From contig DATATW010000063.1 of NCBI GenBank assembly GCA_036268595.1, positions 37,486 to 101,485 of the forward strand: DNA of 64,000 nt, given 5' to 3'. Positions within the stretch are counted from its first letter, which is position 1, and the number at the start of each line of letters is the position of its first letter. This document shows, piece by piece, positions 5,001 to 57,653 of the stretch. The notes under the pieces were generated by a model. It searched no databases. It was not told where the DNA came from and saw only the letters and a program-made list of their open reading frames with translations. Made by a program: the position numbers and the translations under genes. The stretch is from Terriglobales bacterium (GTDB lineage Bacteria; Acidobacteriota; Terriglobia; Terriglobales; Acidobacteriaceae).

Positions 5001-7970
5001 GCTAGTGTGAACACTACGTACACGTATGCACGCTGGGTTGGGTACCTCATTCCGAGCGTAACAGGCGTCCACACGATTGGCGTGAACTCCGACGACGGAA
5101 CTAACCTCTTCATCGGAACACAACAACTCATAAATAACCTGCCTGCTGGACAAGGTGCGAACGGTTCTCTCGCATACACGCAGAATGGCACTATCAGTCT
5201 CACCAAGGGCGTCTACTACCCCATTCTGCTTGAATGGCAGAACGGTGTAGGCAACTACGAAATTCAGCTCGCTTGGACGCAACCGAGCGGCTCTATTCAG
5301 CTCATCCCCGCTGGTAATTTGTCCACAAGCAATACGAGTATTACCAGCAATCTTGCAGGTTCATGGTGGAACGGCACTTCAGGGTTATGGTTCCCGAGCG
5401 GACCGGGAACAATCGACTTTGCCAGCAATGTTCACCCCAACAAAATTCTCGACAACATCGGAGACGGCCCAAGCTTCGTGCGGCTGTTGGCTTCACGTGC
5501 AGTCGGCAACGTCGCCTATAACTTCCGTGGCATCTGGGTATCGGGTACCACCTATCTTCAGGGTGACGAAGTCATCTTCGGTCAAAGTTATTGGGTTGCT
5601 CTCGCCGGAAGTCTGAACTCATCTCCGAACACAGGCAATTCAAACTGGCAGGTAGTCGGCTCATATAGCGGCTTTCAAGGCGCATGGTCTAGCTCGACCG
5701 CATACATCGCTGGAGCGGAAGTCACCTTCGGCGGAAATTATTGGGTCTGTGTTACAGGCAACACGAACTCGACTCCTAGCACATCGAATGCAAACTGGCA
5801 GGTCGCAGGGCCGAGCAGCTTGGACAACATAGCGGATGGCGGCGTCTATTTGCGCACCAGCTACATCGCTGGAGATGCGCTGCTGGACAATGGCAACTTT
5901 GAATCCAGTAGTTCAATCCTTCCACCACCTGGCTACACGCCTTATGCCAATACCGCAACGCTGGCTTACGACACGACCACTCAATTCAGTGGCGCACAGA
6001 GTATCAAGATCACGAGTCCAAGCGCAGGTGGTGCTGGCATATTACCGATAAAGAAGGTCATGTGTCGTCCTGGCGACGTATTCTTTGCTAGCGCGCGCGC
6101 GAAATGGATCAGCGGGTCGGGTGCCGCTGATCTGTCTATAAGTTTCCGAAACGCCAGTGGAACGGGCATCGGTGGTTCTGACGTAACCACTTCATCTAGC
6201 TCTTGGACACTCCTTACCAACACTCAGACTGCACCAGCAGGAACGGTGTATGCCACGTTCGAGATTTATGCAAATGCTGCGAACACCACCGTTGAGTTCG
6301 ACGAACATTACATTCGTTGCGTCCGCAACCTCGATACCGAAATTTCTGATGGCACGACTTACGGCAAGGTGAATCAGACCGCATTGACGGGAAACAATGT
6401 TGATCCTTCAAAAAGTGGCGTCCTCGCGAAGGGCAGCATTCCGTCTAGTCAGAACGCCATCACGCTGAACGGAATGACGTGGACTACCAGCACAACAGGT
6501 GTGACATTCTCTTGGACTCAGACGCCGATATTCCGAGTGGACGGAAGTATCAGCGGATTCATTGCAGGCGGTTCGCAAGCAATCTCGGGATTGCTGGCAG
6601 CTAATTCTTATACCGCCTACCCATACTGGGATGAACCATCGCAAACAATGAGATGGCTGTCCACGGATGTTGTGTTCCCGACCATAACGAGTGTGGGATT
6701 GAATGGAAGCAGCCAGTACCTCACAACCACTACGTCTGCGAACTCGCTGCCCTCCGTGTTTTCTCTTGAAGCATGGATTAAGACAACGGCAGTCAGCGGC
6801 CAGCAAGTTATCATGTCCTTGGCTGCACCGCAGACGGGTACGGGTGCTCCAACCCACGAAGACATGATATGGACGATTGGCCCTGCTGGAAACATAAACT
6901 TCCAGTACGTCAACAGTGGCGGAACGGTTCAGAGTTCCACGACAACCAGCGCGACTGTCAATGACGGTGCGTGGCATCACATCGTGCTCTCGTTCGCGAG
7001 TGGCGGAAACATCACTATTTATGTGGACGGTGCCAGCGCAGGAACTGCCAGTTCGCAGGGTGCTCCGAGGAATGCAGGCTTCGCTCTATGGTATCGAATG
7101 GGATTTGGCCCAGCGAATGCAAGTTTCTTGACCACCAGCAATAGCTTCTTCAACGGCAGTCTCGGTCAGATTGCCCTGTACACCACTGCTCTGTCATTGG
7201 CACAGGTGCAGAATCACTTCATAACTGGTGTGAACGTCGGCTTTAACAACAGTGCGGCGAGTGCTTATCCTGCTGCTGTAGTGGCAGACGGAGCAACTTA
7301 TTACTGGAAGTTGAATGATACTTCGGGAACCACTGCGGTTGAAACCATCAGCGGCACTAATGGGGGAACCTACACAGGAACACCGATATTGAACCAACAG
7401 AATCCGATTGTAGTGCCCAGCGGCTCACCCTCATATATGTTTCCATTCAAGAATTTCCTCTGCACGCAAGCGCAGAATCTCCAGAGCCGCATCGCGCTAT
7501 CAAGCGGTGCGCTGAACCCCACTACCGCGACGAGTGGAACAGGGAATGGAAGTGGTGGTGGTACGGGAGGCGGTGGTCGAGGAGGATGCTGGAGCGGCAA
7601 CACGCTCATCCGCACTCAGTCGAATCCTGTCCGTATCGACCGATGGGTTGACGGAACCAAGGCGCTCACAGCAGCAGGAACATGGGAGCGGTTCGCGCTG
7701 AAAGTCCATGAAGCGAAACGCTGGCAGATGATTGACCCGCTCGACAACGGCGAGTTGGTGACGATTATGCATTTTGTACTTGCGGACGAGGGCTGGAAGC
7801 GAGCGCACATTGCCTATCCAGGCAAGGAAGTGACCGTGCTCGAAGATCGCGTCTATGACCTCGTGAGTATGGACCTGCATGAAACCGAAGCACAGGCATT
7901 GTCATTGACGACAGCACACAGCTACACACTGGAATCAGGCATCGTGGCGCACAACGTATTGCCGAAATAA
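2004..7970 (+). CDS. Giant phage host-specificity / tail fibre protein (1988 aa), multi-domain
   Basis: The N-terminal region resembles lambda-J / Phage-tail_3 proteins ('NPIQCIGQVLTNQQCGLGVG'). There is a PA14-like segment at about 4956-5320 ('YARWVGYLIPSVTGVHTIGVNSDDGTNLFIG...YYPILLEWQNG'). Two ~45-aa sugar-binding-type repeats ending in 'NWQV(V/A)G' lie at about 5528-5812. A LamG/concanavalin-like segment lies at about 6757-7220 ('DGAWHHIVLSF...IYVDG...FNGSLGQIALY'). A Gly-rich linker and a Hint domain follow. Confidence 0.88.
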   Translation: MGFGQQQQPTKLNQAQINQSAYGYPLPWVMGTARIQQSLLWEDGFGAQTVNIQGGKGGGKGGTEYLYFVDCVAALCNGPILGIGDVWSGQSWLGLPNATESYTIAAPGIYTPTNAPAVVTSSNNQLIDVGVGRSIGYSGTFHDLGAPAATVLSGSYLASFIKVPFGTTLTSGTYSINPNSIGTFTLTSVANASGGNTAYTGTITGGGSNAFAGYTFTIAGFTNAANNGSFVCASSTATTLTLQNASGVAQTHAATATEPGNTYHFDATHDAGKTLTLTYSFYLPNITETETDIVPAGKQIVVGGSLQFLTDLGVVYTAGPNNGTRLTKVNTAPTVTGTYQCIPSGHGGTYKFATGDISAQVRITWITQDLSIVPQGAPRSLNFQLFEGAQGQGTWSVLTSKYPGAALGYSSKAYVAYHPMALGTSGQISNNTFEVVTPDIYGGGIKDCNPIQCIGQVLTNQQCGLGVGLVAFPTSVIDNGPNGTWGGAPSIPGSSQLGSTAWNWFAANNFFISPVLDSQDTAASTLGKWLEAGMCAAFYSEGLLKLVSYGDTTTAGNGCTWTAPTAYAVALDDTCYVGKEGEDPVKITRSAPQDAMNAVQVQWNNRSNQYSPEITQESDQASINKWGERREDPQNWDFIHTLTAATFAANMRVKHNVYIRNTYEFTLPFTYSYLEPMDIISLSTTSTWAVGLNNANLGLVNQPARITKIVDDPLTGLAITCEDYPWGAHLPTIYNKAISTANVVSNAYANPGNVEVVMFEATSRLTGYAGNTICIGVCGTSSNYGSTNIWVSRDNTNFEQVGTIQAPARLGVLHSTFASGSDPDTVNSLVIDLAENCGALEAGSTADADNHVTLCFVDGEYIATSAMALSGQQQYTANGYIHRGLLGTTISSHAAGSVFMRLDQSIFKYQYDPTWAGQTLYFKFQPVNAFGNSATPLANLGSQAFTVPGANPGTVEAASGLVIAHKPSGADTLGWAPITTTTDAGVNYGISVTGSAALPASVNTTYTYARWVGYLIPSVTGVHTIGVNSDDGTNLFIGTQQLINNLPAGQGANGSLAYTQNGTISLTKGVYYPILLEWQNGVGNYEIQLAWTQPSGSIQLIPAGNLSTSNTSITSNLAGSWWNGTSGLWFPSGPGTIDFASNVHPNKILDNIGDGPSFVRLLASRAVGNVAYNFRGIWVSGTTYLQGDEVIFGQSYWVALAGSLNSSPNTGNSNWQVVGSYSGFQGAWSSSTAYIAGAEVTFGGNYWVCVTGNTNSTPSTSNANWQVAGPSSLDNIADGGVYLRTSYIAGDALLDNGNFESSSSILPPPGYTPYANTATLAYDTTTQFSGAQSIKITSPSAGGAGILPIKKVMCRPGDVFFASARAKWISGSGAADLSISFRNASGTGIGGSDVTTSSSSWTLLTNTQTAPAGTVYATFEIYANAANTTVEFDEHYIRCVRNLDTEISDGTTYGKVNQTALTGNNVDPSKSGVLAKGSIPSSQNAITLNGMTWTTSTTGVTFSWTQTPIFRVDGSISGFIAGGSQAISGLLAANSYTAYPYWDEPSQTMRWLSTDVVFPTITSVGLNGSSQYLTTTTSANSLPSVFSLEAWIKTTAVSGQQVIMSLAAPQTGTGAPTHEDMIWTIGPAGNINFQYVNSGGTVQSSTTTSATVNDGAWHHIVLSFASGGNITIYVDGASAGTASSQGAPRNAGFALWYRMGFGPANASFLTTSNSFFNGSLGQIALYTTALSLAQVQNHFITGVNVGFNNSAASAYPAAVVADGATYYWKLNDTSGTTAVETISGTNGGTYTGTPILNQQNPIVVPSGSPSYMFPFKNFLCTQAQNLQSRIALSSGALNPTTATSGTGNGSGGGTGGGGRGGCWSGNTLIRTQSNPVRIDRWVDGTKALTAAGTWERFALKVHEAKRWQMIDPLDNGELVTIMHFVLADEGWKRAHIAYPGKEVTVLEDRVYDLVSMDLHETEAQALSLTTAHSYTLESGIVAHNVLPK
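7587..7967 (+). other. Hint (intein / bacterial intein-like) domain forming the last 127 aa of the tail protein
   Basis: Four intein blocks are readable. Block A is 'CWSGNTLIRT', directly after 'GGGGRGG'. Block B (TxxH) is 'VTIMH'. Block F is 'VYDLVSM'. Block G is 'GIVAHN', followed by only 'VLPK' and the stop. Confidence 0.8.
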
Positions 7971-10224: not shown

Positions 10225-10592
10225 TGGTGGAGGCGGCGGGAGTCGAACCCGCGTCCGAAAATGTTACTGGTCAAGAGACTACATGCTTATTCTCGTTCAT
10301 GCCCTTGGCATTACCCAAAGACGTTCGCGACCGCCGCTCAGAACGGACAAGAAACGGATGCCGCTAGCCTGAAGTCTTAACCTCTCTGCCCAGACGTAGC
10401 AGAGAAGAGCAGCCCGCTGTGTGACGTCCGCTCGCAGCCCACGGGCGAAGCTGCGGAAGACGGCAACTTAATTAATTAAGCTGCGTATGCCATCTGTTGA
10501 TTGGCAATTATCATTTTGCCCACGATTACAGGTGCGAGCACCCTGGCATGCCTCTTGGCCGCAAGCATCTCCGTCGAAGCCGTGACGCCCCC
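10225..10592 (-). ncRNA. ssrA: tmRNA (transfer-messenger RNA)
   Basis: The reverse complement begins 'GGGGGCGTCACGGCTTCGACGG' and ends 'GCGGGTTCGACTCCCGCCGCCTCCACCA'. The 7-bp acceptor stem has a G3:U wobble. The internal tag ORF is 'GCC AAT CAA CAG ATG GCA TAC GCA GCT TAA' (ANQQMAYAA). Confidence 0.93.
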
Positions 10593-38337: not shown

Positions 38338-38362
38338 CGCGTCCCAGGGTGGGACGCGTTTT
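38338..38362 (+). terminator. Rho-independent terminator (plus strand)
   Basis: An 8-bp GC stem 'cgcgtccc'/'gggacgcg' with the loop 'agggt' is followed by 'tttt'. It overlaps the 3' end of the convergent minus-strand gene. Confidence 0.55.
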
Positions 38363-38895
38363 CAGACTGCGAAGCCAGAGTCGGAAGCAGCGGCGGGGCC
38401 CGCGTCGATCACAGCTTTAACGACGGGCTCGGCGATAGTGACTTCGGGAACTGGCGGACGCATGAGATTCCAGGCTTCGCGGTACAGTTCGAATGAGGAC
38501 GTCTTGAGTCCGGGCCTGAGATAGACAGCGCTGCGATTTTCTATCAACTCCACTGGAAAGACGTACCAAATGCTTTCGGGGAAAAGGTAGGCAACCAGGA
38601 AGTCAACGTCATCGCGAGAATATAGACTCCTGTGATTTCCAGTCGTCCGCACACGAAAGTGCGGCCTTCCGGACGCTTTGGACCAAACGGATTTTATCTG
38701 GACACGCCAAAAAACTTTACCGATGCGAACGATTACGTCGTAACGGTCACAATCTCCCCAAGGCTTGGCGACGGCGAAGCCAAGAGTGGCCGCTTTTCGC
38801 ATAAAGGCAAGTTCGGCCAACTCGCCGCGATGTTTGCGGTCGAGCCTGGCGGCATGCAGTAATTCATCCTTTAGAGTCTCTTCCAATATTCCCAA
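38362..38895 (-). CDS. PD-(D/E)XK-family endonuclease (PDDEXK_5 / group-I-intron-endonuclease-like)
   Basis: 'GELAELAFMRKAATLGFAVAKPWGDCDRYDVIVRIGKVFWRVQIKS' fits the G-D...YD...(hydrophobic)-Q-(I/V)-K-S/T core of this family. The start is the TTG at 38895 or a downstream codon. Confidence 0.65.
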   Translation of the reverse strand: MGILEETLKDELLHAARLDRKHRGELAELAFMRKAATLGFAVAKPWGDCDRYDVIVRIGKVFWRVQIKSVWSKASGRPHFRVRTTGNHRSLYSRDDVDFLVAYLFPESIWYVFPVELIENRSAVYLRPGLKTSSFELYREAWNLMRPPVPEVTIAEPVVKAVIDAGPAAASDSGFAV

Positions 38896-38906
38896 GGTTT
38901 CGTCCC

Positions 38907-38943
38907 CTAAAACACAAAAAGCGCAGCTATTGAGCTGCGCTTT
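38907..38943 (-). terminator. Strong minus-strand rho-independent terminator 12 nt upstream of the endonuclease start codon
   Basis: An 11-bp stem 'aaagcgcagct'/'agctgcgcttt' with the loop 'attg' is followed on the minus strand by 'tttttgtgtttt'. Confidence 0.7.
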
Positions 38944-39101
38944 GAAATTATCTGATTGCTATATCCAGAGTAGCAGGTTGAATAGGGCGATTGTGCCATG
39001 TTTTCGAAATTCATTTCTGGGTTGCAATCAGGAGCTTAGGGGGAATCGGGGTGAAAAGGGGGCTTGACAAGAATTTTGCACAGGTCGCCTCGAGAGTGCC
39101 T

Positions 39102-39130
39102 CCCACCCTTTGAAAACCGCAAAGGGTGGG
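39102..39130. repeat. REP-like hairpin of the CCCACCCTTT-loop-AAAGGGTGGG family
   Basis: It has a perfect 10-bp stem with the loop 'gaaaaccgc'. Related copies lie at 42630-42658, 52844-52875, 57369-57397 and 57455-57484. Confidence 0.85.
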
Positions 39131-39468
39131 CCAGCTCAGTATCGGTAATGCAGGCAAGGGAAAAGGTGGGCCAGCCCACCAAGGTGCGCCCGACGACAGC
39201 GCGGGGTCGGTGCTGTTCCCCAGGAGCCAGCGCCAGCCACCCGCAACATTCCACAGCCTCAGAATGCGCGTGGATACTGAAGAACTCAAAGACAGCAGCG
39301 TTACTTGATCGGTTGGGTCAGCCGCACCACAGGTTAGCCGGTTGCCACTAACTATGAGCTAGCGAACACTATACGATCTTAGATAAATCATAATTAGTGT
39401 CACTTGTTTGTTTCTTATCATTGACATATGACAATTACTAAAACGTAATCGTATGAAACAGAAGGAGA

Positions 39469-39497
39469 TATATAAAACGTTAGAACCACCATGACAA
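39469..39497 (-). promoter_or_regulatory. Sigma70-like promoter candidate on the minus strand inside repeat unit 1 (TTGTCA-17-TATATA)
   Basis: The -35 reverse complement is at 39492-39497 and the -10 reverse complement at 39469-39474. The same signal is conserved in unit 2. Confidence 0.35.
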
Positions 39498-39837
39498 GCT
39501 ATAGCAAAATAGTGGAAACTTTCCATTCTCCAGATCCGATATCGGGACGCAAGGTGCGCCCGACGACAGCGCGGGGTCGGCGCTGTTCCCCAGGAGCCAG
39601 CGCCAGCCACCCGCAACATTCCACAGCCTCAGAATGCGCGTGGATACTGAAGAACTCAAAGACAGCAGCGTTACTTGATCGGTTGGGTCAGCCGTACCAC
39701 AGGTTAGCCGGTTGCCACTAACTATGAGCTAGCGAACACTATACGATCTTAGATAAATCATAATTAGTGTCACTGGTTTGTTGCTTATCATTGACATATG
39801 ACAATACGCAAACGCAAGCGTCTCAAACAGAAGGAGA

Positions 39838-39865
39838 TATATAAAACTTGTAACCACAATGACAA
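39838..39865 (-). promoter_or_regulatory. Sigma70-like promoter candidate on the minus strand inside repeat unit 2 (TTGTCA-16-TATATA)
   Basis: The -35 reverse complement is at 39860-39865 and the -10 reverse complement at 39838-39843. Confidence 0.35.
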
Positions 39866-40143
39866 GCTATAGCGAAATATTGGAAACTTTCCATTCTCCA
39901 GATCCGATATCGGGACGCAAGGTGCGCCCGACGACAGCGCGGGGTCGGTGCTGTCCCCAGGAGCCAGCGCCAGCCACCCGCAACATTCAACGGCCTCAGA
40001 ATGCGCGTGGATACTGAAGAACTCAAAGACAGCAGCGTTACTTGATCGGTTGGGTCAGCCGCACCAACTTAAGCGAAGACGTGATCGGCTATGCGATGAC
40101 GCCACGGTGCGTATGATATGGACAAGTAATTTCGTATTCAGTA

Positions 40144-40173
40144 TTGACTTTGGCGGTGATGAAGGTGTAGGTT
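40144..40173 (+). promoter_or_regulatory. Promoter candidate for the four-gene operon (TTGACT-18-TAGGTT)
   Basis: The hexamers lie at 40144-40149 and 40168-40173, about 30 nt upstream of the ATG at 40204, which is preceded by 'gaggaacgagg'. Confidence 0.3.
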
Positions 40174-40203
40174 CAGCTTACCCGGGAAAGACGAGGAACG
40201 AGG

Positions 40204-40623
40204 ATGCGGTTTGAAGGAATTGTAGTTGTGCGAAAAGCAGCCGAAAGTGCCGTAGCGGACATGCATGCCGGACCGATGCAGATCGCGGCCTTTCAGACAA
40301 TCCTTTCTCACCTTCTTCAGGACGCACGGAACGGCGGGCGTGTTGGGTCAGTAAATTCTGTTAAGACAATTAGCAGAAAACGGAGCCTTGGGGGAATGCG
40401 GGCTAATGGGACTACGGCGCGCCTGCTGAGTCTAATTAATGAAGGAGTCTTCAGTCAGAGTCGATCCCTGGCCGAAATTCGTCAAGCGCTGTCGGAGCGC
40501 GGCTGGCAATATCAACCTGAGGACCTCGGAACTCCGTTAACTCGACTTGTCCAACGCGGGTATCTCAGGCGCACCCAAGAATCCAACGGCGGAAAGAAGC
40601 TGTGGAGATACTCCACTGCCTAG
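40204..40623 (+). CDS. Small winged-helix (wHTH) protein, operon gene 1
   Basis: The C-terminal 'LLSLINEGVFSQSRSLAEIRQALSERGWQYQPEDLGTPLTRLVQRGYLRRTQESNGGKKLWRY' has a wHTH-like pattern (helix-turn-helix, then a basic wing). The start is possibly the downstream Met at aa 20. Confidence 0.6.
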   Translation: MRFEGIVVVRKAAESAVADMHAGPMQIAAFQTILSHLLQDARNGGRVGSVNSVKTISRKRSLGGMRANGTTARLLSLINEGVFSQSRSLAEIRQALSERGWQYQPEDLGTPLTRLVQRGYLRRTQESNGGKKLWRYSTA

Positions 40624-42322: not shown

Positions 42323-42500
42323 CCTAGCGCCCGGCGGGCTGCCCCAGGCTTTTGATCTTGTGGCATTACCAACACAGTGGGTGGCCCCGTCCGTTGCCTT
42401 CTCGGCGAAGGGCGGGAGTCGGAAATGCCCGCGCCAAGTGAGTTTGATCACGTGTCCACAACAAAATCAAATAGCACTCGCAGCATCGCCGGCGGGCTGG

Positions 42501-42658
42501 CCCACCCTTTGAACCACACTAAAACAGCTGCCCCACCGTTCGTGCTTTTCGAAGGTTGGGTATCGCCATGCGTAGATTTGGTGCGGGTTACCAGAGACAG
42601 AACATCTCGTGGCGCAATCGTTCGAGGTGCCCACCCTTTGAAAACCGCAAAGAGTGGG
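42501..42658. repeat. Cluster of REP-like CCCACC.../...GGTGGG hairpins
   Basis: The cluster contains 'cccaccctttgaacc...', 'ccccaccgttcg...cgaaggttggg', and 'cccaccctttgaaaaccgcaaagagtggg' (42630-42658). Confidence 0.75.
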
Positions 42659-42761
42659 GCGCCCTCAGTTGTGGTGGTTACCAGCGCGGAAGGTTGGGCC
42701 AGCACTCGCTTATTCCCATCTCTCGCAGACGGGACATGGCATGCGGCTGGGAGGTCCTGTC

Positions 42762-43673: not shown

Positions 43674-43718
43674 GCCGAGCTTGCGCTCGGCAGGACAGCC
43701 GAGGGCGGCTGTCCCCAC
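43674..43718. repeat. Double-hairpin REP element, copy 1
   Basis: 'gccgagc ttgc gctcggc a ggacagccg agg gcggctgtcc ccac' forms two adjacent perfect hairpins. It is identical to 43911-43955. Confidence 0.9.
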
Positions 43719-43770
43719 ATGGTTTGTTACAGGGTTTGTTTCATGGTTTGTTTCATGATTTGTTTATGAA
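43718..43770. repeat. Short tandem stutter of (ca)tggtttgttt-type words
   Basis: The sequence 'catggtttgttacagggtttgtttcatggtttgtttcatgatttgtttatga' is readable directly. Confidence 0.8.
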
Positions 43771-55587: not shown

Positions 55588-57366
55588 GTGGACAATAAAT
55601 CCATCGCTGGAATTTTGTATGAAACGGCCGACCTGCTGGAAGTCGACGGGCAGGATTCGTTCCGTATCCGGTCGTATCGCAATGCCGCCGAGGCGATTGA
55701 AGGGCTATCGCAGCAAATTGCCGACCTCATAGAGGATCCCAAGCAGGTGCTGGCGATTCCCGGCATCGGCAAAGGCATGCTCAACAATTTGAAAGAAATG
55801 CTGCATGAGGGAAAGCTTTCGTTGCATGCCGAAATGCTGAAGAAATACCGGCCATCGATGCTGGAGTTGCTTAGGGTACAGGGGCTGGGGCCGAAAACTG
55901 TGGCGCTTATCTGGAGCGCTTATCAGGTTTGCGATCTGGAGGGAGTGGAAAAGCTGGCGCGGGAGGGAAAAATACGCGAGCTGCCGCGGATGGGAGAGAA
56001 ACACGAGCAGAAAATATTGAAGGCGATCGAAGATTACCGGAGGATCGCGGGACGTTTTTTGCTGAACGTCGCAGAGGTGCAGGCAGAAAAAATCGCGGAA
56101 CATCTGAAGGACTATCCAGGGGTTGAGAACGCGGTTCCGGCGGGTTCGCTTAGGCGTGGGCGTGAGACTGTGGGCGATCTCGACATTCTGCTGACTGGGC
56201 CGGCATGTTGCGATGACGTGGAGCGGGAAAAATTGATTGAGCACATCATCAAACTGCCCGGGCTGATGGAGATCATTGCGCGCGGCGAGAACAAGGTAAG
56301 TTTCCGCTTGCGCGGTGGAATGCAGGTGGATGTGCGGTTTCTGCCGCCGGAATCATTCGGGGCGGCGATGCAGTACTTCACTGGATCGAAGGGACACAAT
56401 GTCGCGTTGCGACAGCGGGCGCTGAAGATGGGTTACACGTTGAACGAATACAGCCTGGCGAAGCTGGATGATCAGCAGGTGGTGGCGGGGAAATCGGAAG
56501 AAGAGATTTATGCGGCGCTGAATCTGGATTACATCCCTCCGGAGATGCGGGAGAATTGCGGCGAGATAGACGCGGCGGAGAAACACGCGTTGCCGAAGCT
56601 GATCGTGCAGGATGATCTGCAGGGCGATGTGCATATGCACACTATCGAAACCGACGGGCGAAACACGATCAGCGAGATGGCGGAAGCGGCGCGCGAACGC
56701 GGGTACAAATATATGGCCATCACCGATCATTCCAAAAACCTGGCTTTCGCCAACGGGCTTGACGATGCGCGGGCACTCGAGCACATCAAGCGGATTCGGG
56801 CGACCAACGATACCATCGAAGGCATCAAGATTTTTGCCGGAATCGAGGTCGATATTCTGGCCGACGGGTCTCTTGACCTTTCCGATTCGGTGCTCGAGCA
56901 GATGGATGTGGTGATTGCCAGCGTGCATTCGCACTTCAATCAATCGGCGGAGGAAATGACTGCCCGGTTGCTCCAGGCGATTGAGAACCCGAACGTCTCG
57001 ATCATTGGGCATCCGACGGGGCGCATTCTGTTGCGCCGGGATGCATATCCTTATGACATGGATGCGGTGCTCGAGGCTGCGGCACGGCATAAAGTTGCGA
57101 TGGAGTTGAACGCGTACCCAGACCGACTCGATCTTTCGGACCGGCACTTGCGAATGGCCAAGCAACGAGGCGTCAAGATCGTGATCAATACTGACTCGCA
57201 TCACACCACGCACCTGGAGAAAATGCGCTACGGAGTGCTGCAGGCGCGGCGAGCCTGGCTGACTTCGGGGGATGTGTTGAACACGTTGCCGGTAGATCAG
57301 TTTGCTTCGGCCATGAAGCATGAGTGGCCGGCGTCCACTGCTGCGCCTGACTTCATTCTTTCGTAG
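55588..57366 (+). CDS. polX: Family X DNA polymerase with C-terminal PHP domain
   Basis: It has N-terminal HhH motifs ('IRSYRNAA', 'IPGIGKGM', 'GLGPKT'), a palm region 'GSLRRGRETVGDLDILL', and a PHP region 'GDVHMHTIETDG'. The start is GTG. Confidence 0.9.
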   Translation: MDNKSIAGILYETADLLEVDGQDSFRIRSYRNAAEAIEGLSQQIADLIEDPKQVLAIPGIGKGMLNNLKEMLHEGKLSLHAEMLKKYRPSMLELLRVQGLGPKTVALIWSAYQVCDLEGVEKLAREGKIRELPRMGEKHEQKILKAIEDYRRIAGRFLLNVAEVQAEKIAEHLKDYPGVENAVPAGSLRRGRETVGDLDILLTGPACCDDVEREKLIEHIIKLPGLMEIIARGENKVSFRLRGGMQVDVRFLPPESFGAAMQYFTGSKGHNVALRQRALKMGYTLNEYSLAKLDDQQVVAGKSEEEIYAALNLDYIPPEMRENCGEIDAAEKHALPKLIVQDDLQGDVHMHTIETDGRNTISEMAEAARERGYKYMAITDHSKNLAFANGLDDARALEHIKRIRATNDTIEGIKIFAGIEVDILADGSLDLSDSVLEQMDVVIASVHSHFNQSAEEMTARLLQAIENPNVSIIGHPTGRILLRRDAYPYDMDAVLEAAARHKVAMELNAYPDRLDLSDRHLRMAKQRGVKIVINTDSHHTTHLEKMRYGVLQARRAWLTSGDVLNTLPVDQFASAMKHEWPASTAAPDFILS

Positions 57367-57368
57367 TT

Positions 57369-57484
57369 CCCACCGTACGAAAACCGCGTAGGGTGGGGCA
57401 CCCTCGCTGGCGTACGGCGTACCCTGCTTCACCTCACTTCATGGTTTCGTGGTTCCCACCGTACGAGAATCGCGTAGAGTGGGG
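57369..57484. repeat. Two tandem REP-like hairpins (CCCACCGTACG-loop-CGTAGrGTGGG)
   Basis: The copies lie at 57369-57397 and 57455-57484. Both are preceded by 'gttcc' and followed by 'gcaccctc'. Confidence 0.85.
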
Positions 57485-57653
57485 CACCCTCATTTGTGGT
57501 AGCTCAGGATAATCACGTCGCCACATTTTTGGGAGGAGTGGCTTTCCTACGAAAGTCAAAGGCGGCGGACAAGAGCGTCCGGCCCACACTCCCCAAAGTG
57601 GCCCACACGGGCATGGACTCGGCGAGTACAATTCCCAGAGCAGGAGGAGACCC

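Follow-up and report, generated by a model that had tools for sequence, protein, structure and literature searches.

The DNA analyzed here, a 64-kb stretch from an acidobacterial genome (the window), carries an operon of four genes, A to D, and just 5′ of it a tandem array of alternating GC-rich (M) and AT-rich (S) modules, that is bordered on its left side by REP-like hairpins (Table 1). None of the four proteins matched Pfam (including Abi_2), NCBIfam or PADLOC, and the sequence search against PDB returned nothing useful. The winged helix of A is PadR-like, as indicated by the Foldseek matches 4ejo and 5zi8 (E 3e-3 to 5e-3, probability 1.0). In D the R-x6-H pair is invariant among 26 sequences and the modeled N-terminal domain is helical, as is typical of the R-x4-6-H motif in the all-alpha domain of HEPN proteins; the same model carries a MarR-like winged helix. 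The top match of the D model in Foldseek, 1ufb, and the fourth one, 2hsb, are HEPN proteins found at weak E values of 0.2–0.5. The label "HEPN operon", introduced in the initial annotation of this DNA, is thus plausible in the light of the invariant R-x6-H and weak with respect to the structural matches. A single search yielded 1,929 homologues of D across bacterial phyla and archaea, which makes the D-type HEPN/winged-helix proteins a large unannotated family.

Table 1. Positions of the array, its internal elements and the adjacent operon in the window.
Feature	Position	Strand	Remarks
REP-like hairpins	39102–39180		Left border of array; the array of the orthologous locus L114 has the same neighbor
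M1, GC-rich module (62% GC), copy 1	39180–39340		Directly 3′ of REP-like hairpin
M/S junction block, 48 nt	39330–39377, again 39700–39747		~78% conservation in L114
S1, AT-rich module (35% GC)	39341–39549		
TTGACATATGACAA box of S1	39421–39434	+	TTGAC word; no TAnnnT hexamer 16–18 nt on
Divergent patch, unit 1	39436–39456		Where -10 hexamer and start site would come after the TTGACA box
Box 3, ATGACAAGC, copy 1	39491–39499		GACAAG kept in 9/12 group-1 arrays
M2, GC-rich module	39550–39710		98.75% identity to M1
S2, AT-rich module (38% GC)	39711–39917		
TTGACATATGACAA box of S2	39791–39804	+	370 bp past the first box, 353 bp ahead of operon -35
Divergent patch, unit 2	39806–39825		Contains the small palindrome ACGCAAGCGT
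Box 3, ATGACAAGC, copy 2	39859–39867		
M3, GC-rich module	39918–40066		1-nt deletion and 2 substitutions; final element ahead of operon promoter
Operon promoter	40120–40173	+	GGACAAGT 40120–40127, -35 TTGACT 40144–40149, 18-nt spacer, -10 TAGGTT 40168–40173; conserved in L114
Gene A, 139 aa	40204–40623	+	Two N-terminal helices and C-terminal PadR-like winged helix
Gene B, 117 aa	40632–40985	+	As called on contig L001 (ORF from 40602); distant paralogue of A
Gene C, 180 aa	41013–41555	+	Conserved partner of D; stop overlaps D start
Gene D, 256 aa	41552–42322	+	N-terminal helical HEPN-like domain, invariant R107-x6-H114; C-terminal MarR-like winged helix

The array and its counterparts at related loci

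The array extends from 39180 to 40066 and contains 2.4 copies of a bipartite unit, the starts of which (39180, 39550, and 39918) are spaced by 370 and 368 bp. The initial annotation had described such a 2.4-copy array of a ~369-bp unit with GC and AT modules, and it is real, with units 95–99% identical; the three recurring starts were recognized properly and their positions were off by a trivial 1 nt. Units 1 and 2 are 95.4% identical along 371 nt, and the incomplete unit 3 reaches 96.7% along 150 nt; between M1 and M2 there are differences at 2 of 160 positions, in line with the near-identity reported for the GC modules before. The modules also stand apart in their composition, with 62% G+C for the GC modules and 35–38% for the AT modules, the value for the 64-kb window being 54.8%. 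Tandem Repeats Finder fails to call the array. The motifs previously listed for both AT modules were located in two copies each, namely TTGACATATGACAA (Table 1), TGGAAACTTTCCA at 39513 and 39881, and CCGATATCGG at 39536 and 39904; within an AT module the box motifs face each other ~70 nt apart. The ~20-nt segment in which the divergence between the AT modules had been said to concentrate was found as well (the two patches in Table 1), and among the arrays compared, differences clustered in this way are limited to the window and two other loci (L019 and L004). As a guide-like variable segment this stretch was rejected, because neither of its 24-nt versions was matched elsewhere in the window at ≤3 mismatches.

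Arrays with a period of 336–392 bp accompany homologous operons of soil acidobacteria in 12/12 independent loci that begin with gene A (group 1) and in 9/9 that begin with gene E (group 2), where they are located 100–240 nt 5′ of the first gene and comprise at least 1.14 unit copies each. The linkage to the operon, which had been proposed as a check together with a search for copies elsewhere, thus holds in 21/21 loci, and further copies of the unit were found nowhere in the 64-kb window. Approximately 25 B-first, C-first, and other-phylum loci contain no such array, and when each related locus was compared with itself, no further copy of its array unit was listed within 2.5–3 kb of the array. 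These results speak against a REP/BIME cluster or an IS/MITE remnant, copies of which would be dispersed in the genome and tied to no single gene set. The type of the array tracks the family of the first gene, that is TTGACA/GACAAG words accompany A and the CAAGTG word accompanies E, and the sole locus with a degraded A gene (L025/L101) has lost the array. The only closer relative of the window array that was found is the orthologous M-S-M array L114. Inside each of these two loci the M copies are 95.6–99% identical, whereas between the loci the overall identity drops to about 64–65%, which shows that the array undergoes concerted evolution. The period stays at 336–392 bp although the sequences become unalignable between lineages.

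Short words are retained in these arrays far more often than in shuffled sequences. TTGACA is found in 11 of the 12 group-1 arrays (shuffle mean 2.1) and GACAAG in 9 of them (shuffle mean 1.5), while CAAGTG is found in 8 of the 9 group-2 arrays (shuffle mean 1.25), and group 2 also contains a 17-bp palindrome, TCA[AC]G[TC]-N5-[AG]C[TG]TGA, the half-sites of which co-vary. The boxes of group 1 are mostly direct repeats, 6–7 bp apart, and the TTGAC box is often doubled. In the nine group-1 loci that could be scored, TTGAC is confined to the AT core and to a single further copy that forms the operon -35 (L043 has in addition one extra box 10–16 nt 5′ of the AT core), and the final box of the array precedes the operon -35 by 0.90–0.97 of a period. 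This lattice does not hold in group 2. In the window the word GACAAGT of the AT modules is also present at 40121–40127, within GGACAAGT, which recurs 17 nt 5′ of the operon -35 and has in L114 the version GGACAATT, with one mismatch.

Coding capacity, RNA structure and promoter signals

The argument that the array does not encode a protein, raised in the initial annotation, was upheld. A 76-aa ORF at 39491–39721 (+) is shortened to 52 aa in its unit-3 copy (39859–40017), as this unit is frameshifted, and another short ORF lies at 39729–39857 (-). When the arrays were compared with tblastx all frames were hit equally, a small-ORF scan revealed no ORF with a Shine-Dalgarno sequence and a hydrophobic stretch that recurs at a fixed position across arrays, and the lengths of ORFs vary among loci from 7 to >100 aa; a conserved ORF, which was to be looked for, was not found. 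The HMM of the A family searched against six-frame translations gave a best E of 3.5. Paralogy of the units with the operon promoter or with the 5′ end of gene A was also considered and rejected, because local alignments were not significant in comparison with shuffles; a MAFFT alignment that apparently joined the units to these sequences is not trusted.

The RNA checks gave no support to the structured RNA that had been proposed. Rfam gave no match in the array even at E ≤ 10, ten related loci searched at its gathering threshold had none either, and single-sequence folding of the GC module was no better than that of shuffles (z = -1.0 for the plus and +0.3 for the minus strand). RNAalifold of the M modules from the window and L114 indicated for the plus strand that the main hairpin is broken in L114, with a covariation term of +5.76 (a penalty), and the stem gcgcccgac/gtcggYgc, to which attention had been drawn earlier, is broken in this array, too. 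For the minus strand most pairs were kept (-28.6 kcal/mol, four compensatory pairs), in a comparison of two lineages and with many G·U pairs. In group 2 there were 0 pairs for M and -11.75 kcal/mol over 396 columns for full units, that is no consensus structure. A rut-like, C-rich RNA with strand-asymmetric composition was rejected, since the mean GC skew is -0.03 and falls within the background.

As for transcription signals, a consensus scan of the window array detected two promoter-like sites vs. 1.3 ± 1.5 in shuffles, which is no enrichment, and the best sites of a sigma-70 PWM scan were mostly no better than those of block shuffles. A TAnnnT hexamer follows 16–18 nt after 9 of 10 operon boxes vs. 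8 of 32 array boxes. A canonical sigma-70-type promoter is lacking in most units, no terminators were found, and no terminator-like site is present between the array and the operon (40066–40204). The minus-strand signal TTGTCA-16/17-TATATA, that had been regarded as promoter-like, misses the invariant T6 of the -10 hexamer. Four of the 12 group-1 lineages (L008, L009, L021, and L024) retain a plausible -10 after the box, and therefore some of their modules may still fire.

Possible roles of the array

It seems quite possible, if somewhat short of an even chance, that the array is iterated cis-regulatory DNA, i.e., a bank of pseudo-promoters or operators for the PadR-like winged-helix proteins of the operon, and not a set of RNA genes. 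The initial annotation had mentioned operators for the neighboring winged-helix proteins as its second choice, and this choice is the better fit, because short DNA words are kept, the operon -35 is the end point of the TTGAC lattice and A is PadR-like. The hypervariable patch of the window, which falls exactly at the expected -10 position, also counts in its favor. In the proposed mechanism the unit would consist of a GC-rich spacer and an AT-rich pseudo-promoter module, that presumably retained a -35-like TTGAC box and a GACAAG box and lost a usable -10 in most lineages. The boxes lie on a lattice of ~350–380 bp, the last member of which is the true operon -35. Winged-helix proteins of the operon may bind both the boxes and the operon promoter; the likeliest predicted binder is the PadR-like A (E in group 2), the choice among the four winged-helix proteins being a guess. 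The upstream modules would then act as auxiliary operators that raise the local occupancy of the repressor, either by cooperative binding or by looping over the ~350-bp spacers, and the potentially toxic HEPN operon could in this way be tightly silenced. Recombination between units would homogenize them and change their copy number, thus possibly tuning the set-point of expression.

Auxiliary operators and repressor looping are known for lac O1/O2/O3, DeoR, and PadR-family operators. The locus resembles them in that a short word is present at the promoter and at sites hundreds of bp upstream, and the adjacent operon encodes winged-helix DNA binders, for which tighter repression would be expected. 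It differs from them in that the putative sites lie within 336–392-bp tandem units homogenized as a whole and the boxes resemble a -35 and are arranged for the most part as direct repeats. Inverted repeats are the usual targets of PadR-type dimers, and the mostly direct arrangement of group-1 boxes therefore speaks against operators of this kind, as does the fact that the AT modules show no significant overall similarity to the operon promoter region. We know of no auxiliary operators embedded in homogenized 370-bp tandem units, and the need for whole-unit repeats is left unexplained by an operator bank. If the modules are auxiliary operators, they would be an unusual case, in which regulatory sites became more numerous through tandem duplication of entire units and stayed alike through concerted evolution.

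The main reading of the initial annotation, a structured or processed RNA similar to ToxI, is unsupported, because there is no Rfam match, no fold signal (the hairpins being broken in L114) and no consensus structure, promoters are few, the terminator is absent and the unit is long. A rather unlikely variant is that each of the tandem units is a gene for an ncRNA with little or no structure, in which the AT module drives a transcript of ~200–300 nt that serves as antitoxin or regulator of the HEPN protein, like ToxI or the AbiF-associated RCd22. The anatomy of the unit, with its AT-rich head and GC-rich body, is gene-like. Read on the minus strand, box 3 is TTGTC[AG] and is followed 16–18 nt on by a TATA-like hexamer in 8–9 group-1 arrays, including L114, and in group 2 TTGnTT is followed after 17/18 nt by a TA-rich hexamer, the place of which in the alignment is constant, 13–18 nt before M. 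However, few of the best promoter-like sites pass the TAnnnT rule, that finds nearly all operon promoters, and the strand implied for the RNA is not the same in groups 1 and 2. The minus-strand pairs of M retained between the window and L114 are in agreement with an RNA, but many of them are G·U pairs in a GT-rich strand of two lineages only, and the folding, Rfam and terminator results given above stand against it.

Known systems with repeats next to toxin genes were considered in this context. The repeats of type III toxin-antitoxin systems are ~34–45 nt long and are processed by the toxin, with which they form an RNA-protein complex; the toxins (ToxN/AbiQ/CptN) are endoribonucleases, a single promoter is located upstream, and the repeats are set off from the toxin gene by a terminator. 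The present array is similar to these systems (ToxI/ToxN, CptIN, TenpIN; PMC3401426; PMC8860590) as a non-coding tandem repeat of small copy number (2–5) just 5′ of a putative RNase toxin. It differs in a unit of 368–370 nt (336–392 in relatives), which is about ten times longer, in a toxin that is HEPN-like and not ToxN/AbiQ, in the absence of a conserved RNA fold and of a terminator after the array, and in the conserved TTGACT-18-TAGGTT promoter that the operon has of its own. In a precedent for the RNA reading the abiF motif, or RCd22 RNA, is a repeated non-coding element 5′ of the HEPN toxin AbiF (Abi_2), which it neutralizes or regulates (PMC12373285). Common to both is a HEPN-superfamily toxin, putative in the present case, with a repeated non-coding element upstream, yet neither the abiF motif of Rfam nor Abi_2 of Pfam is matched here, and the units are much longer and show no signal of a fold. 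Tandem sRNA or type I toxin-antitoxin repeats with one promoter per unit are represented by the NsiR1 array of Nostoc and the LDR Ldr/Rdl repeats of E. coli. The window array has similar head-to-tail units beside a gene, each with an AT-rich, promoter-like head, but most units are devoid of a canonical promoter and terminator, and neither a peptide nor an RNA is conserved. Position alone is no ground for a ToxI-like label; if the array is transcribed, HEPN systems would gain an RNA partner with long units.

One may also ask if the array is a functionless relic, i.e., an upstream region that was duplicated once in tandem and has been homogenized purely by recombination. This is improbable. The GC modules evolve fast and without coding or structural constraint, the junction phases differ among group-1 arrays, and relatives show that the locus readily duplicates in tandem, with two A-like genes in L090 and 137-nt repeats flanking A in L091. 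On the other hand, direct repeats of 100–370 bp are expected to collapse by recombination, and the array is nonetheless kept at every independent A-first and E-first locus, its period is held despite unalignable sequences, the words TTGAC and GACAAG as well as the palindrome of group 2 persist across lineages, and the array is gone at the one locus with a degraded A.

It is very improbable that each unit is a cassette resembling type I toxin-antitoxin systems (cf. Ldr/Rdl), which would encode a small toxic peptide together with an antisense RNA that overlaps it: the unit size of hundreds of bp, the facing box motifs and the two short window ORFs would suit it, but the tblastx result, the lack of a fixed-position ORF with Shine-Dalgarno sequence and hydrophobic stretch, the frameshift of the 76-aa ORF and the variable ORF lengths argue against it. 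An array inflated or invented by the assembler is hardly conceivable, since, even though short-read contigs break at the array (L001, that ends within the repeat, L008, L022, and L104) and the exact copy number is uncertain in short-read assemblies, the independent JGI contig L002 contains this locus with an identical number of copies, the units are told apart by substitutions and a 21-nt divergent patch, and arrays are present in over 20 independent assemblies, including MFD bins (L010, L012, and L019), which by their name probably come from a deep Nanopore long-read study (PMC12313526).

Whether as operators or as RNA genes, the array might constitute a new class of recombination-homogenized repeats by which a HEPN toxin operon is regulated, which we consider unlikely; it would be either an operator "accordion" tunable by copy number or a series of promoter-bearing ncRNA genes with a unit-specific variable segment, the RNA of which partners the HEPN/winged-helix protein. 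The statement in the initial annotation that no described element has this shape was borne out, as no matching described element was found. Acidobacterial D-type loci thus offer a conserved non-coding array with clear landmarks, by means of which the regulation of what is probably a toxin or defense module can be tested.

The REP/BIME clusters of Acidobacteria are likewise intergenic, repetitive and sometimes tandem; they differ in being short GC-rich hairpins dispersed genome-wide, whereas the 370-bp unit is bipartite, locus-specific and tied to one operon family. Among the other loci compared, L111 has no such array, and L110 encodes a D that is 92% identical, yet accompanied by different partner genes. 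REP-like elements similar to those at the left border of the window array are found also 5′ of L109 and L111.

A homogenised tandem array upstream of the operon

Self-comparison of the window revealed a genuine tandem array at 39180–40066, with copies starting at 39180, 39550 and 39918 (spacing of 370 and 368 bp) and modules ordered M1-S1-M2-S2-M3, where M is GC-rich (~160 nt, 62% GC) and S is AT-rich (~208 nt, 35–38% GC; the whole window has 54.8% GC). Units 1 and 2 are 95.4% identical across 371 nt and the partial unit 3 shows 96.7% identity across 150 nt, while no further unit copy is present anywhere in the 64-kb window. The details of the initial annotation were recovered: M1 and M2 differ by two substitutions, unit 3 carries the 1-nt deletion (M3 has two substitutions in addition), the 76-aa ORF lies at 39491–39721 and is shortened to 52 aa in unit 3, the differences between AT modules cluster in a patch of ~21 nt (39436–39456 versus 39806–39825), and all three palindromic words are found in the AT modules. 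Each GC module contains two copies of a 10-nt direct repeat, GAC[GA][AG]CAGCG, ~100 nt apart.

The independent JGI contig L002 contains the same locus with equal copy number, and the short-read contig L001 ends within the repeat. Tandem Repeats Finder, run on window 38900–40300, reported nothing for the 370-bp array and reported the 346-bp array of L004, a related locus; since a genuine array is missed, the silence of this program carries no evidential weight, and the 370-bp array looks like its blind spot. Three arrays derive from MFD bins, whose names probably place them in a deep Nanopore study (PMC12313526), and such an origin would count against an assembly artefact.

The array proved considerably more general than was initially recognised. 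Among 113 related loci (~0.9 Mb of DNA) the C-D gene pair forms a widespread core (Acidobacteriota, Bacteroidota, CPR bacteria, Actinomycetota and archaea) with variable upstream genes. A long-period array was detected by self-comparison immediately before the first gene in all 12 independent A-first loci with enough upstream DNA (group 1) and likewise in nine of nine loci of E-F-D architecture (group 2), with periods of 336–392 bp and copy numbers of 1.14–2.4 across the 21 loci. Such arrays are absent from ~25 loci that are B-first, C-first or from other phyla, and also from L025/L101, the sole lineage with a degraded A gene. Outside the arrays, repeats offset by 300–420 bp are rare in the ~0.9 Mb, and two were seen (Table).

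Arrays of different lineages are mostly unalignable, thus it is the architecture and position that are conserved, not the sequence. L114, whose protein A is 86% identical to that of the window, has an orthologous M-S-M array (period 366) starting after the same REP-like neighbour. Copies of M within a locus are 95.6% (L114) or 97–99% (window) identical, whereas the two arrays share ~64% identity overall, which implies that the array is older than the split and was homogenised in each lineage. The group-2 lineages are only 62–68% identical, yet they share the boundaries of M (start CACTTG, end CAAG[TC]G).

Conserved words and a putative operator function

Array type follows first-gene family, TTGACA/GACAAG going with A and CAAGTG with E. 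TTGACA is present in 11/12 group-1 arrays (shuffle mean 2.1) and GACAAG in 9/12 (shuffle mean 1.5), while CAAGTG is found in 8/9 group-2 arrays (shuffle mean 1.25), where TCAAGC is likewise prominent. Group 2 also contains a 17-bp palindrome, TCA[AC]G[TC]-N5-[AG]C[TG]TGA, with co-varying half-sites, and its M is bounded by the palindrome's own half-site words. Within group-1 arrays TTGAC is restricted to the AT core, often doubled 6–7 bp apart (except L043, with one extra box 10–16 nt upstream of the core), and a single further TTGAC, downstream of the array and ahead of the start codon, constitutes the operon −35. In 9/9 scorable loci this −35 lies 0.90–0.97 of a period beyond the last array box (353 for a period of 370 in the window). 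TAnnnT follows 16–18 nt after 9/10 operon boxes versus 8/32 array boxes. The post-box stretch, that is the divergent patch of the initial annotation, shows the lowest conservation within S between the window and L114, and in both it coincides with the expected position of −10 and start site.

The simplest reading of these sequences is that the AT modules are putative pseudo-promoter/operator modules, in which protein binding would preserve the −35-like box and neighbouring words, the −10 would be free to drift, and the units would be kept alike by recombination, which could also alter their number. That the array type tracks the first gene, together with the winged helices of DNA-binding type in the models of A and D, favours such a bank of operators, which might help to repress a potentially toxic operon; we hold this, binding and repression included, to be a reasonable possibility at somewhat less than even chance. 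Against it, PadR-type dimers do not usually bind sites arranged as direct repeats, the TTGAC lattice is absent from group 2, and S shows no statistical similarity to the operon promoter.

The array is classed with repeated regulatory elements beside a toxin operon, its function being putative, and would be most like distal auxiliary operators; we know of no described auxiliary operators that use homogenised 370-bp tandem units. It differs from type III TA arrays in unit length, toxin family, promoter/terminator layout and RNA fold, from the abiF motif/AbiF system in lacking the required Rfam and Pfam matches, from type I/LDR-like repeats in lacking a conserved peptide, and from REP/BIME or MITE elements in being locus-specific and tied to one operon. 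Literature searches for an element of this kind close to HEPN genes yielded nothing beyond the general survey of HEPN proteins and papers on type III and AbiF systems.

RNA and coding content of the units

An unstructured non-coding RNA made from the units is a less probable alternative, most plausible for the four lineages in which a −10 is retained or for box 3 (the GACAAG-containing word) read on the minus strand. Consensus and PWM promoter scans of the array gave no enrichment over shuffles and no terminator lies between the array and the operon; the units are not clearly transcription units. Nor are they a known RNA or a detectably structured one. Rfam yielded nothing in the window array even at E ≤ 10, and nothing in ten other arrays. 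Folds of the GC module resemble shuffles (z = −1.0 on the plus and +0.3 on the minus strand), whole-unit folds reach z ~ −2 on both strands, group-2 M has no consensus pairs and the full group-2 unit consensus gives −11.75 kcal/mol over 396 columns. A minus-strand M fold compared in two lineages only keeps most pairs (−28.6 kcal/mol, four compensatory changes), although it relies on G·U pairs in a GT-rich strand. The stem suggested in the initial annotation and the window's long hairpin are both disrupted in L114 (covariation term +5.76). The proposed likeness to ToxI RNA is therefore unsupported, given the missing Rfam match, shuffle-like folds and broken hairpin; the operator alternative raised beside it fits better, though it stays putative and tentative.

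Coding units were rejected, as argued earlier from the frame-breaking deletion: tblastx between related arrays matches equally in all frames on both strands, the arrays scanned have no small ORF in common that carries a ribosome-binding site or a hydrophobic stretch, and the A-family HMM found nothing in six-frame translations of the arrays (best E 3.5). A neutral relic is unlikely, because the array persists in 21/21 lineages and retains conserved words.

Operon proteins and neighbouring features

The four-gene operon begins 137 nt right of the array and encodes A (139 aa), B (117–127 aa), C (180 aa) and D (256 aa), none with a Pfam, PADLOC or NCBIfam assignment. D has 1,929 homologues, and R107-x6-H114 is invariant in those compared. 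In its AlphaFold model (pLDDT 81) the N-terminal domain is helical and the C-terminal one is a MarR-like winged helix; the top (1ufb) and rank-4 (2hsb) Foldseek hits are HEPN proteins, with E of only 0.2–0.5. The model of protein A places a PadR-like winged helix (E 3e-3, probability 1.0) after two N-terminal helices. Given the R-x6-H motif and these predicted folds, the label of a HEPN operon with winged-helix proteins is fair but not proven. The closest D homologue (92% identical), in L110, has neither A nor B before it but two other genes, one partial and of 213 aa and one of 125 aa, which suggests that D/partner modules get shuffled.

Left of the array lie a PDDEXK_5 gene with its terminator hairpin and a set of REP-like hairpins stopping exactly at the array start; one of these abuts the array's left end and a counterpart abuts the L114 array. 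Such hairpins are typical of acidobacterial intergenic DNA. The PDDEXK_5 gene adjoins the operon in five loci (window, L003, L009, L109 and L111), both array-containing and array-less, and may share one island with it. The arrays of the B-first loci L109 and L111 are built differently from the bipartite AT/GC units and repeat ordinary REP hairpins such as GCGGCGCTTCAGCGCCGC. Repeats in a distant clade (L090, L091/L093/L094; D ~50% identical) show that the locus readily undergoes tandem duplication.

Table. Positions of features in the window and in related loci (L-numbers)
Feature	Position	Strand	Remarks
A-first loci with array	window, L004, L007, L008, L009, L021, L024, L043, L103, L104, L105, L114		n = 12
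E-F-D loci with array	L010, L011, L012, L013, L019, L035, L037, L038, L042		n = 9
Window–L114 conserved block			start of M (GGTGCG..GACGACAGCG)
Window–L114 conserved block	39330–39377		M/S junction
Window–L114 conserved block			TTGTCATTGACA core
Window–L114 conserved block			box 3 to next M
Window–L114 conserved block			operon promoter including GGACAAGT
GAC[GA][AG]CAGCG repeat	39192–39201, 39291–39300		equivalent positions in M2, M3
GAC[GA][AG]CAGCG repeat, orthologous array	L114 M1 (1322–1479), M2 (1688–1846)		kept
PD-(D/E)XK endonuclease gene (PDDEXK_5, PF11645)	38362–38895	minus	left of array
REP-like GC-rich hairpins	39102–39130, 39165–39180, ~42400–42760		cccaccctttg...caaagggtggg; ggtgggctggcccacc
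Repeat pair	L019		76 nt, offset 322
Repeat pair	L068		overlaps two short membrane-like ORFs; may be duplicated genes
Three-copy tandem arrays	L109 3915–4558, L111 1283–2157		period 255–288 bp
GC-rich repeats either side of A-like gene	L091/L093/L094 1858–2551		137 nt, period 565 bp
Two tandem A-like genes	L090 1877–2753		period 459 bp
tmRNA gene	10225–10592	minus	Rfam 172.6 bits; ARAGORN tag peptide ANQQMAYAA
86-bp tandem repeat	57329–57491		1.9 copies, 85% matches
CATGGTTTGTTT ×4 microsatellite	43718–43765		
tRNA-Sec-like Rfam hit	L004 5493–5580		47.6 bits
Acido-Lenti-1 RNA (RF01687)	L019 4675–4720	minus	44.2 bits; ~280 nt left of L019 array

The tRNA-Sec-like hit in L004, ~600 nt left of the L004 array, is bracketed by 62-nt direct repeats (5324–5385 and 5939–6000), and this region (5324–6000) may be an island integration site.
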